This document shows positions 37,345 through 53,636 of a stretch of DNA of 64,000 bases, piece after piece (within the stretch, counting starts at the first letter, position 1; each line of letters begins with the position of its first letter). The DNA comes from an uncultured Gammaproteobacteria bacterium (GTDB taxonomy: Bacteria > Patescibacteriota > Patescibacteriia > UBA1558 > 2-01-FULL-52-15): contig CAZIOU010000002.1 in assembly GCA_964540995.1 (NCBI GenBank), forward strand, positions 43,750 through 107,749. The letters are read 5' to 3'. The translations under genes were made by a program, and so were the position numbers. The notes under the pieces were generated by a model, which did not search any database, was not told where the DNA came from, and worked only from the letters and a program-made list of their open reading frames with translations.

Positions 37345-37420
37345 TGGTGGGCCTGGGTGGAATCGAACCACCTACTTCGATCTTATAAGGATCGCACTCT
37401 AACCGATGAGTTACAGGCCC
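37345..37420 (-). tRNA. tRNA-Ile with anticodon UAU (reads AUA); CCA encoded
   Basis: The reverse complement GGGCCTGTAACTCATCGGTTAGAGTGCGATCCTTATAAGATCGAAGTAGGTGGTTCGATTCCACCCAGGCCCACCA folds as a full cloverleaf: 7-bp acceptor stem, D stem ACTC/GAGT, anticodon stem CGATC/GATCG with loop CTTATAA, and a GGTGG-TTCGATT-CCACC T-arm. It is very similar to tRNA-Ile(GAU), including discriminator A73. Coordinates are accurate to about 2 nt. Confidence 0.85.
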
Positions 37421-47960: not shown

Positions 47961-48116
47961 AAATTTATATTATCTCGCTCGCTCATCTACATCCATCCCC
48001 TTCTCGCACGATGTTGGCCTTCACCCTTCGCTAAAGCTTCGGGTGACAAGTACGGGACTTCTCATATCCTGGCCAGTTGTGCAAAATCGCGCTTATATAT
48101 TAGTAATAAAATTTTT

Positions 48117-52174: not shown

Positions 52175-52411
52175 GTGAAGATGGCTGCTCTAGAAGAGAA
52201 GCGCTGGCATCGGGCTCCGATCGCGAAGTTACGCCGCCAAGCTCGGTTGCAAAAGGTCGCCCGTGAACATCTGGCCGCAACAATCGGAATTATGATCGGC
52301 TCAGGATCATTTCTGGCCTATTATTTGAACGCTCCAGATTTCATCGTTGGGTTATTGATGTTCATAGGATTGACGATTCTCACTATCACCCACTTCTGCA
52401 GTCGTAGCTGA
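52175..52411 (+). CDS. Small hypothetical membrane protein
   Basis: 78 aa. GTG start. One or two TM helices. Confidence 0.35.
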   Translation: MKMAALEEKRWHRAPIAKLRRQARLQKVAREHLAATIGIMIGSGSFLAYYLNAPDFIVGLLMFIGLTILTITHFCSRS

Positions 52412-52835
52412 CATGGACATCAATTTCCAAAGCCTTACCCGACTCATCAGAGACGGATTTACCTTTGGGATAATCATCGCTATTGCCTGTCTGATCATAT
52501 TCGTGTTTGGTCGTTATCTGTTTCGGCGGCGATCATGAGCACGACACCATAGGAGCCTCGCGCCCACTCGGCACGCGGCTCTTTTTATTACTCAAAACTA
52601 CACTCCTATATAGGTGAGCTTGCCCGCCGACCTGTCCCCCGAAGCCTTGGCGTAGGGGGAAGCTTTCTTGCCTGCCGTAGCATCGGCGAAGGCAGGAGCG
52701 AAGGCGGGTCCGACATAATAGTACGACGGCTGATGGAGCAGTGGATAACTGGGTCTTGAAATAATTTACCAATCAGGTACACTTAGACCCAGAAAAACAG
52801 GGGTAGTCCTTACAAACGGGACGCGCAATACTCCT

Positions 52836-52874
52836 GTTATTTTCTTTGCCGTAAATTACGGCAAAGAAAATAAC
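52836..52874. repeat. Perfect 39-nt palindrome (19+1+19)
   Basis: gttattttctttgccgtaa-a-ttacggcaaagaaaataac. Coordinates accurate to about 2 nt. Confidence 0.7.
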
Positions 52875-52962
52875 CCGCCGAGATCCTAATGAGACACCAG
52901 CGGGTAATCGTGAATCGCCAACAAAGATATTGTCGGCGACTACTACCAAAAAGGAGGTTGCT

Positions 52963-53601
52963 ATGAAACAGGGACTGTTCTTTGTTTTAGCTTTGGCTTT
53001 GGCTGCCTGTCAGACCGAAGCCCCTACTACTCCACCGCTACAATTACGAGTTCAGGACTTGTCAGCTGACGATCATCTGATGCAGACACTGGATCACCAG
53101 CACTTCTTCGAGACCATCTCACCCAATGCTGGTTGGATCGATCATGATCATCCCTACTACGCCAACGATGGTCAGCGCGAATTCGTCTTCATCGATCTGG
53201 AAGCTGCTGACGAACATCGTACGCTCGTCATTATCTTCCGTCAGCAGCAGCCTGTCGCAGCCACCATCATCGGCTATGCTCCGATCGAGTCCTGCTATGA
53301 AGATGAGCCAGATCAATCTGCTACTGATGGCTATGTCTTCGTCTATGACCTGTCACAAGGCGTTCGTTGCCTGATGAACTACTTCACCGGTCAAAACCTG
53401 ACATCATCTGAGGAGCTCCCGAGCGACCAAAGACAAAGTCTCGATCTACTGAGTCATGAGTCTCAGCGTCAGTGCCTGACTAGCTACTTCCAGCACAAAC
53501 CACAAGGGCTTAACTGTCACTTGCTGACTGAGCTAGATATCTTGCCGCGGATGCAGTACGTGGCTGACGACGTCAGTCAGATAGTAGATTGCCTGCCGTA
53601 A
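52963..53601 (+). CDS. His-rich lipoprotein
   Basis: Shine-Dalgarno AAGGAGG, then MKQGLFFVLALALAAC with a LAAC lipobox. Has HQHFFETI and IDHDHPYY segments. The track starts the ORF at the TTG at 52930. Confidence 0.6.
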   Translation: MKQGLFFVLALALAACQTEAPTTPPLQLRVQDLSADDHLMQTLDHQHFFETISPNAGWIDHDHPYYANDGQREFVFIDLEAADEHRTLVIIFRQQQPVAATIIGYAPIESCYEDEPDQSATDGYVFVYDLSQGVRCLMNYFTGQNLTSSEELPSDQRQSLDLLSHESQRQCLTSYFQHKPQGLNCHLLTELDILPRMQYVADDVSQIVDCLP

Positions 53602-53606
53602 TCAGG

Positions 53607-53636
53607 GCCGCCGAGCTTAGCTCGGCGGCTTCTTTA
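53607..53636 (+). terminator. Rho-independent terminator
   Basis: gccgccgagc-tta-gctcggcggc followed by ttcttt. Confidence 0.7.

Follow-up and report, generated by a model that had tools for sequence, protein, structure and literature searches.

We found that the GC-rich part of the spacer upstream of a lipoprotein gene, in a 64,000-nt stretch of contig CAZIOU010000002.1 from an uncultured bacterium (the window, by which we mean the whole stretch), consists of a 30-bp palindromic repeat in three copies, nested in one another, and is not an RNA regulator. The spacer runs from 52538, the stop of an open reading frame (ORF) for a 41-aa membrane protein, to 52963, the ATG of the gene for a 212-aa lipoprotein, and the nested copies (the block) occupy 52619-52708. 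A first-pass annotation, made from the sequence alone, had described about 400 nt of this spacer as GC-rich and structured. This is true of the block, which has a GC content of 0.678. The remainder of the spacer (0.467) is close to the window as a whole (0.451). The best overall explanation, to which we give a probability of about 0.8, is that the block is a set of nested selfish repeats lying beside a conserved module of promoter and terminator and a young palindrome.

The copies, which we call units, share one design: each has the prefix C[CT]TG, a stem of 6 bp, an internal loop that is symmetric (3x3, with GWA facing GWA), an inner stem of 3 bp and a loop of 2 nt, giving the consensus C-Y-T-G, 6-bp GC-rich stem, GWA, GCY-TT-RGC, GWA, return stem. 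In the block, unit 1 lies in the 5' internal loop of the outer unit, between GA and AGC, and unit 2 lies in the apical loop, after GCTTT (Table 1). With both 30-mers taken out, the outer unit reads CTTG CCCGCC GAA GCT TT AGC GAA GGCGGG, the same design again. The inverted repeats that had drawn attention to this segment (TCCCCC/GGGGGA, CCTGCC/GGCAGG and CCCGCC/GGCGGG) are all present, and they belong to these nested copies of a dispersed repeat. The block is predicted to fold as a three-way junction because the units are nested.

There is one more unit in the window, a solo copy (Table 1) in which two base pairs are changed in a compensatory manner compared to unit 1. It sits in a 156-nt spacer (47961-48116), AT-rich apart from the unit, between an unknown 206-aa gene and a DUF2164 gene, and upstream of the latter. 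A covariance model of the unit, run unfiltered over the 64 kb, returned the three intact copies, with the next best match at 11 bits. The three intact copies were in the training alignment of the model, so the informative part of this result is that nothing else matched. The 11-bit match is the lipoprotein gene's own terminator (GGCCGCCGAGCTTAGCTCGGCGGCTTCTTT; 53603-53631, plus strand), and its likeness to the unit is probably a coincidental similarity of GC hairpins. All three members of the block have counterparts in other genomes. The 26-mer of unit 1 is identical in 20 other genomes, the outer unit has intact relatives elsewhere (for example, CCCGCC GTA GCT TT AGC GAA GGCGGG), and a close variant of unit 2 occurs in another genome (CCTGCC GAA GTC TC GGC GTA GGCAGG).

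We scanned a 26-nt core pattern, TCNCCCGAAGCNTTNGCGWAGGGNGA, over both strands of a bacterial collection containing one genome per species (596 Gb). There were at least 118 loci that matched, compared to a chance expectation of ~0.14 by our own estimate (21 fixed bases plus W). Judged from record titles, the hosts among the matches listed included Saccharibacteria and other Patescibacteria (Doudna-, Uhr- and Buchananbacteria), many Alphaproteobacteria (including Rickettsiales, Rhodospirillales, Maricaulis and Micavibrio), Gammaproteobacteria, Bdellovibrionota, Omnitrophota, Verrucomicrobiota, Acidobacteriota, Planctomycetia, Bacteroidota and Elusimicrobia, as well as FCPU426, Binatia, Dadabacteria, Thermodesulfobacteriota and one cyanobacterium. 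Four cultured isolates were among them: Aquisalinus flavus (a complete chromosome), Maricaulis virginensis, a Nitratireductor sp. and Roseiterribacter gracilis. In one or two cases a contig with units looks alphaproteobacterial in style yet is labelled otherwise (L093, a Flavobacteriaceae metagenome-assembled genome, and perhaps L067, Mycobacterium sp. KBS0706), and some of the phylum assignments may reflect mis-binning or mislabelling. Several genomes contribute at least three loci. The sequences flanking the unit are unrelated between loci, and the GC content of the host loci ranges from 0.38 to 0.69, yet the core is unchanged. Viral contigs gave 4 matches to the unit and 0 to the palindrome described below; with so few matches to the unit, there is no sign of a phage vector.

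The hairpin itself is under constraint. Two base pairs had been left free in the scan pattern, and these positions were paired in 110 of 123 and 119 of 123 listed copies (CG, TA and AT types), an unbiased sign of a constrained hairpin. Directly 5' of the core, the matches listed had T in 101 of 121 and G in 99 of 121, preceded by C/T and C; the base directly 3' of the core was C or T. In addition, a structure-based finder returned 127 matches in the unit loci and 1 in shuffled loci, and among the matches were many variants whose outer stems are fully compensated.

The unit family appears to be a small palindromic selfish repeat that is undescribed. It had no Rfam match, either in the spacer of the window or on six arrays of tRNA, hairpins and GIY-YIG genes; apart from tRNAs, these searches gave only spurious microRNA or plastid matches. 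Searches of the full-text literature, whose coverage is incomplete, returned no description of it as DNA, as RNA or as encoded peptides, and one survey from the Breaker laboratory makes no mention of it. Other short GC-rich hairpin repeats lie beside units in several loci (L026, L042/L085/L102, L054, L095 and L105), for example ..GTCATTCCCGCGAAGGCGGGAAT.. and ..TTTGCGAGGGAGCGCC..GCGACCGCGGCAATCTCAT... In three of these (L042, L085 and L102) the unit sits inside another hairpin repeat, which suggests several co-resident hairpin families.

We compared the spacer of the window to those of its relatives. Judged tentatively by its genes and by the hosts of related units, the window looks Saccharibacteria-like. 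The lipoprotein family has only 8 members, which limits the power of such comparisons. One relative, a Logan contig (L001), has a lipoprotein coding sequence identical to that of the window (639/639) and upstream genes that are 97.6% identical; a second (L130) has a lipoprotein that is 83% identical. Despite the identical coding sequence, the block is absent from L001, in which the gap between the upstream terminator and a conserved GTCCGACATAATAG holds ~65 unrelated nucleotides in its place. The block is also absent from L130. L001 does have units elsewhere in the spacer: a decayed nested cluster lies right 3' of the palindrome. Further relatives have units in other arrangements. The spacer of L128 has a solo unit (CCACCC GAA GCC TT GGC GTA GGGTGG), that of L126 has a unit truncated by a run of N, and that of L124, the one locus returned by a metagenome scan with the lipoprotein, has a triple nest.

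These comparisons bear on whether the block is a cis-regulatory RNA, a riboswitch or leader that senses a metal or a metabolite and controls the gene of the histidine-rich lipoprotein; a riboswitch or leader was among the candidates of the first-pass annotation. The segment is ORF-free and GC-rich, it is predicted to form a three-way junction, and it lies upstream of a gene with histidine-rich motifs. However, the junction consists of three copies of a dispersed repeat, and the block is missing from L130 and from L001. Its absence from L001, whose lipoprotein gene is identical, largely refutes the proposal, and no aptamer is conserved. The relatives differ in the number, arrangement and position of units. 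There was no Rfam match to the block even at E <= 10; at that threshold, the region from 52400 to 53050 gave only spurious microRNA-hairpin matches to the palindrome, and the only gathering-level match in the window was one tRNA (Rfam 15). The fold of the block alone is modest (z = -2.6). A terminator precedes the block, the only promoter-like site of the spacer follows it, and the start codon is ~250 nt away. Since the block is upstream of that site, it is probably outside the lipoprotein leader. We consider a regulatory RNA in the block very improbable. The block also appears to be non-coding. No credible ORF was found in the spacer, and the one long ORF there (79 aa, minus strand, 52533-52772) has no Pfam match and spans the block that L001 lacks; on these grounds we treat it as spurious, as the first-pass annotation did.

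Nesting recurs at the same positions in other genomes. In L030 (Doudnabacteria) and L086 (Saccharibacteria) a unit is inserted at GA^AGC in just the way that unit 1 is. L124 has two insertions at the site of unit 2, in the loop after GCTTT, and these too have a CTTG or CTAG prefix. Units are also found within genes. Many lie inside long ORFs, where they encode ..(L)SPEALAKG(D/E).. or, in another frame, ..PVPRSLGEGG... A BipA/TypA homologue (L065) is longer than E. coli BipA by a net 10 residues at the unit. A DinB homologue (L003) stands alone among 15 close homologues in having the unit insert, which is in a linker that is hypervariable, and other homologues have other unit-like peptides in the same linker. 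In a lipoamide-dehydrogenase-like gene the unit is in a variable loop and the comparison is not crisp. Neither the DinB nor the lipoamide-dehydrogenase-like genes gave a clean empty site, the insertion points being in hypervariable loops.

The same BipA homologue has an extra 21-aa insert, CFPPNGGVSPEGAMGGVTGAR, at residues ~224-245 compared to E. coli BipA, which may be another inserted repeat. An alignment of DinB from Patescibacteria has two linkers of hypervariable length (columns 135-180 and 230-280), with recurring peptides (..PAGGQI.., ..HLRGEGS.. and ..SPYGRSPEGG..) that resemble translated repeat insertions in several lineages.

The borders of the units point to how they might spread. 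Flanking direct repeats of at least 7 nt were found 14 times in the listed loci, compared to ~4.5 expected. In two loci (L003 and L090) a 9-10-nt direct repeat adjoins the 3' end of the unit, and on the 5' side there are 9-18 extra nucleotides ending in ..CCGACCTG, which resemble a fragment of an outer unit, copied along from a donor with nested units. There was no target-site duplication of fixed length at any offset; the flanking repeats vary from 7 to 10 nt. Together with the differences between strains, the nesting and the in-frame copies, these results suggest that units spread by being copied in, through repair or template switching, rather than by cut-and-paste transposition.

Units are often found near tRNA genes and sometimes near genes for GIY-YIG proteins. 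A tRNA gene lies within 300 nt of the unit in 36 of 123 listed copies, and nearly all of these units are 30-130 nt past the tRNA 3' end, on the tRNA strand. In such arrays the first hairpin starts with the tRNA's own CCA (CCACCC TTC GCC .. GGC TTC GGGTGG). Eleven listed copies are 10-90 nt upstream of a small ORF that starts with M(Y/W)YVY... A profile made from these ORFs found 14 GIY-YIG ORFs in 864 kb of unit-bearing loci, and 12 of the 14 abut a unit. The proteins are 80-92 aa long and consist of the catalytic domain alone (PF01541); no NCBIfam model matched them. The order tRNA, hairpins, GIY-YIG gene was found in Alphaproteobacteria and in one Uhrbacteria genome (L068). The contig labelled Flavobacteriaceae (L093) has this layout too.

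A mechanism consistent with these features can be proposed. The unit would be selfish DNA that is copied into new sites and that strongly favours sites within its own copies. With such a preference a filled unit could convert empty units, the unit halves serving as short stretches of homology. The unit would probably be mobilised in trans, and the favoured candidate for the mobiliser is a stand-alone GIY-YIG nuclease whose break is repaired by copying. It is possible, if rather doubtful, that this nuclease is what moves the units. If it is, the copies in the window are non-autonomous, since there is no GIY-YIG gene there. The block occupies a fast-evolving gap between the terminator of the upstream genes (52552-52589) and the conserved module (52724-52851). 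More generally, the unit may be the trace of an undescribed class of mobile elements that crosses phyla and is among the smallest, propagated by GIY-YIG nucleases that are only a catalytic domain, with cassettes that home to the tRNA 3' CCA and solo hairpins that spread by break and copy. This broader proposal is tentative and we would not bet on it. If it is true, the carriers range from Patescibacteria to Alphaproteobacteria, and the targets are hairpins, spacers and, in frame, genes.

Several observations weigh against a selfish origin of the block or against parts of the overall explanation. There are just four units in the 64 kb. There is no clean pair of filled and empty sites: the whole segment around the block is replaced in L001 and L130, which leaves the insertion boundaries and any target-site duplication undefined. 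The composite of two units that is found in three genomes could be a selected structure. The matches outside the Alphaproteobacteria are mostly in metagenome-assembled genomes. The stem statistics of the relaxed units come from sequences that were selected for pairing, and only the test at the two free positions is unbiased. With no GIY-YIG gene in the window, whose only tRNA is 15 kb from the block, and with only ~10% of units elsewhere abutting such a gene, the link to the nuclease is an association and not a mechanism. For the module, the promoter and the terminator are predictions from consensus and fold, and there was no covariation, the sequences of four relatives giving no informative pairs.

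The units might also have a host function. That is, they could be domesticated elements, similar to REP (repetitive extragenic palindromic) elements, that act as a transcription barrier, as a stabiliser of RNA 3' ends or as a protein-binding site and that insulate the lipoprotein promoter from read-through of the upstream genes. The block comes directly after a terminator and before the promoter-like site, tRNA 3' trailers hold units on the tRNA strand, the stems covary, and all of the relatives have some hairpin repeats in this spacer. Self-nesting and in-frame copies in genes are hard to square with function, however. Presence and position vary between near-identical strains, no U-tract follows the block, and the same core is found across phyla at any host GC content, which argues for horizontal spread and not for local selection. 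We think a host function unlikely as the explanation of the units, although elements that began as selfish could also have been co-opted now and then.

In contrast to the block, the sequence next to it is conserved. The region 52724-52836 is 92% identical between the window and L130, compared to 78.6% for the lipoprotein coding sequence and 71.3% for the genes of the small membrane proteins. Conservation above that of the flanking genes points to purifying selection. The region contains a promoter-like site followed by a hairpin with a U-rich tract (Table 1). The hairpin is conserved in L001 and L130, is predicted to fold at -19.5 kcal/mol (-18.5 kcal/mol in L130) and is followed by UUAUUUUCUUU. 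It has the features expected of an intrinsic terminator or attenuator: a GC-containing stem-loop, a U-tract and a promoter upstream. A terminator scan did not list it because its stem is long and interrupted. The module is a candidate for a terminated transcript with a predicted length of ~55-60 nt, and it is likely the functional element of the spacer, as judged from these predictions, either as a small RNA or as an attenuating leader of the lipoprotein gene. Thus, the earlier idea of a leader or small RNA fails for the GC-rich block and survives, in another place, for the short stretch 52756-52851.

A small RNA similar in size to 6S RNA or signal recognition particle RNA was also suggested, and the spacer might encode one long stand-alone RNA of this kind that covers the block and the palindrome. 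The spacer indeed has no ORF over ~400 nt and folds strongly as a whole (z = -6.6), mostly owing to the palindrome. However, no 6S, signal recognition particle or other Rfam model matched, two segments of the spacer are replaced in L001 with only 52724-52851 conserved, and the internal promoter-like site and terminator-type hairpin would divide such an RNA. We give a single long RNA almost no credence.

Two sequence features near the promoter-like site were considered. The DnaA-box-like 9-mer listed in Table 1 occurs once in the window, with ~0.6 copies expected by chance, and is conserved in L001 and L130; its inverted form, TTATCCACT, abuts the -35 in L125, L126 and L128. Its position next to the promoter-like site is a weak lead. 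An 8-bp inverted repeat around the promoter (52749-52756 / 52785-52792) is not conserved in L130 and was dropped.

Four other relatives (L124, L125, L126 and L128) have a longer and near-invariant module in the same place, with a promoter, an 86-nt hairpin and T8. Its parts are a promoter-like site, TTGCC(A/T)-17-TATACT, a 5' mini-hairpin, a run of A7, a long hairpin (GCGCAA loop) and T8. Common to this module and that of the window are CTTG..ACCAAT..TAnACT, AAAAAnAGGGG and GCGCAAT. From its sequence, the long module looks like a gene for a small RNA of ~86 nt. The long form was not found in the window, and the version in the window had no Rfam match. The same four relatives and L131 have a second conserved terminator-like hairpin, AACAGGGAACC..GCATGTCTTGATGCTG..CCCTGTTTTTTT, ~100-150 nt before the lipoprotein ATG. 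The sequence after this hairpin, GGCATCAATCC, could base-pair with its loop. The two may form a lipoprotein leader that works by attenuation and antitermination in these five relatives.

The perfect palindrome reported by the first-pass annotation is real: it is an exact inverted repeat of 19+1+19 nt (52836-52874) and has no second copy in the window. Folded as RNA, it is predicted to give a stem of 18 bp (-23.3 kcal/mol; z = -10.9 compared to shuffled sequences). The U-tract of the preceding hairpin makes up its 5' arm, so that an inverted duplication of the U-tract would be its simplest origin. The palindrome was found only in the window and in L001; L130, L124, L125, L126 and L128 lack it, and L131 has too little upstream sequence. 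After the same hairpin, L130 has a homologous sequence that is not palindromic (CTGCTTTTTGTTTGGCTCAATTTCCGATG), and the remoter relatives have other sequence. We take the palindrome to be a young elaboration of that hairpin's U-tract that is specific to this lineage. We rejected the possibility that it is an intrinsic terminator, since on both strands the T-rich arm is upstream and the A-rich arm downstream.

The symmetry of the palindrome is being maintained. Over 173 conserved nucleotides there are three substitutions between the window and L001, and two of them are a mirror pair (C>T / G>A) that leaves the palindrome perfect. By our own estimate, such a change has a chance probability of the order of 1e-3. 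Symmetry could be kept by selection on a DNA operator, by selection on an RNA hairpin, or by correction of one arm from the other through template switching. Template-switch correction of quasi-palindromes is an established mechanism. An operator for a dimeric transcription factor that regulates the lipoprotein gene, as had been proposed, would fit the exact two-fold symmetry over 39 bp, the location between the promoter-like site and the gene, and the symmetric changes, which are expected if half-sites must match. In contrast, neither L130 nor the remoter relatives conserve the palindrome, it is single in the window, no regulator gene was seen adjacent to it, and its 19-bp arms are much longer than those of typical operators. 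In addition, a hairpin of RNA or DNA, or template-switch correction, would predict the symmetric change just as well. We regard an operator as rather unlikely.

Table 1. Features of the lipoprotein spacer and unit copies (coordinates are those of the window unless a relative is named)
Feature	Position	Strand	Basis or remark
Block of three nested 30-nt hairpin units, 90 nt, GC 0.68	52619..52708	+	sequence, fold
Outer unit, split: CTTG CCCGCC GA / AGCTTT / AGC GAA GGCGGG	52619-52630, 52661-52666, 52697-52708	+	
Inserted unit 1: CCTG TCCCCC GAA GCC TT GGC GTA GGGGGA	52631..52660	+	covariance model, 49 bits
Inserted unit 2: CTTG CCTGCC GTA GCA TC GGC GAA GGCAGG	52667..52696	+	covariance model, 39 bits
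Solo unit: CTTG TCACCC GAA GCT TT AGC GAA GGGTGA	48019..48050	-	pattern search; covariance model, 48 bits
Putative intrinsic terminator of upstream genes: imperfect GC stem GGAGCC..GGCTCT, then TTTTTATT	52552..52589	+	fold, sequence
DnaA-box-like 9-mer AGTGGATAA, 8/9 to the reverse complement of TTATCCACA	52740..52748	+	just 5' of the -35
Promoter-like site: TTGAAA, 16 nt, TACACT	52756..52783	+	only plus-strand promoter-like match in the spacer
A-tract, predicted hairpin AACAGGGGTAGTCC..GGGAC GCGCAAT ACTCCTGTT, U-rich tract	52793..52851	+	fold
Palindrome, 19+1+19: GTTATTTTCTTTGCCGTAA A TTACGGCAAAGAAAATAAC	52836..52874	.	exact inverted repeat
Hairpin CCCGCC..GCGGG (site B, second hypervariable site)	52874..52904	+	sequence; nested decayed unit cluster here in L001
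Predicted hairpin TCGCC..GGCGA, just 5' of the ribosome-binding site	52915..52939	+	fold
Shine-Dalgarno AAGGAGG and lipoprotein ATG (52963)	52951..52965	+	sequence
Long module of relatives	L124 2569-2689; L125 1561-1681; L126 1625-1745; L128 1619-1739		

The rest of the locus is much as it was first described, with small membrane proteins encoded upstream (two ORFs, of 78 and 41 aa) and a lipoprotein containing HQHFF and DHDHPYY downstream. The lipoprotein begins with MKQGLFFVLALALAAC..., and the translation of 52963-53601 is database protein P0001. The terminator that closes the genes of the small membrane proteins is kept in L001 and L130. The hairpin just 5' of the ribosome-binding site has the same structure and a different sequence in those two relatives, as read from their sequences. 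Short tandem repeats are found in the variable part of the spacer in two other relatives, ttagaacttagaacttcga.. in L125 (~1740-1840) and cttacaacttataacttacaactt in L128 (~1800-1840), where they replace hairpin units or stand beside them. The spacer of the lipoprotein gene is a general hot spot for repeat turnover. The sole tRNA gene of the window encodes tRNA-Ile with anticodon TAT (UAU; 37345-37420, minus strand). To our knowledge, tRNA-Ile(UAU) is uncommon in bacteria, AUA usually being decoded by a lysidine-modified CAU tRNA.

For this locus, a false candidate for a riboswitch or small RNA is removed, and attention moves to the 130-nt module as the likely regulator of a clade-specific lipoprotein. 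Since the hairpin is near-identical in bacteria of over a dozen phyla, either it has a conserved protein partner or horizontal transfer is frequent. If the link to the nuclease is true, the unit would be a very small and tractable model of homing-type mobility. Reduced genomes, for example those of Saccharibacteria, would gain hypervariable spacers and protein linkers from it, and it would be a recurrent false positive for screens of structured RNA that choose GC-rich intergenic regions.

Among known systems, REP sequences and REPINs, with their RAYT genes (TnpA-REP, HUH Y1 transposases of the IS200/IS605 type), resemble the unit in several ways. They are short (20-40 bp), GC-rich, imperfect palindromes that are multi-copy, dispersed, mostly intergenic and often clustered, with hairpins kept by compensatory changes, and a single-copy nuclease gene with the repeats on either side presumably mobilises them in trans. 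The unit is likewise a short, GC-rich, dispersed palindrome in many copies. It differs in that REP families are specific to a species or genus, whereas the unit core is near-identical across many phyla; in that the associated gene encodes a GIY-YIG protein and not an HUH Y1 transposase; and in that REPs are extragenic, whereas units are also in frame in genes. Self-nesting is not known as a feature of REPs. The ends differ as well. REPs carry a terminal GTAG or CGTC tag (PMC3733652). The unit has neither at its ends; it has a CYTG prefix, a C/T 3' end and an internal GWA/GWA 3x3 loop, and GTAG is found only internally, in the GTA loop variants.

MITEs (miniature inverted-repeat transposable elements), such as the Correia elements of Neisseria, ERIC and RUP, are also small, non-autonomous and of inverted symmetry, vary in presence between strains and affect neighbouring transcription units. 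However, MITEs are 100-400 bp long with terminal inverted repeats derived from insertion sequences and with fixed target-site duplications, whereas the unit is a single hairpin of 26-30 bp that has no such ends and no consistent duplication.

In-frame insertion into genes that code for proteins is shared by the unit and the Rickettsia palindromic elements (RPEs). RPEs are reportedly ~100-150 bp long and confined to Rickettsia. By that description the unit, at 30 bp (10 codons) and found across phyla, is different, and the sequences are presumably unrelated.

The GC clusters, double-hairpin elements and byp elements of yeast mitochondria are very short, GC-rich mobile hairpins in AT-richer genomes. 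Similar to the unit, they insert into each other and into coding regions, and they are found in genomes rich in endonucleases. They differ in being organellar, eukaryotic and of unrelated sequence, and byps are bypassed by ribosomes whereas the bacterial unit is presumably simply translated.

Free-standing GIY-YIG homing endonucleases share with some units the arrangement of a small GIY-YIG gene beside a presumed DNA target, and spread by break and copy would explain the homing of filled units into empty ones. I-TevI and the Seg proteins, however, have a DNA-binding domain and a long asymmetric target, whereas the proteins next to units (80-92 aa) are a catalytic domain only. By analogy, the behaviour of the unit appears closest to that of REPs and REPINs, to that of RPEs in its in-frame insertion, and to that of the mitochondrial GC clusters in its self-nesting.

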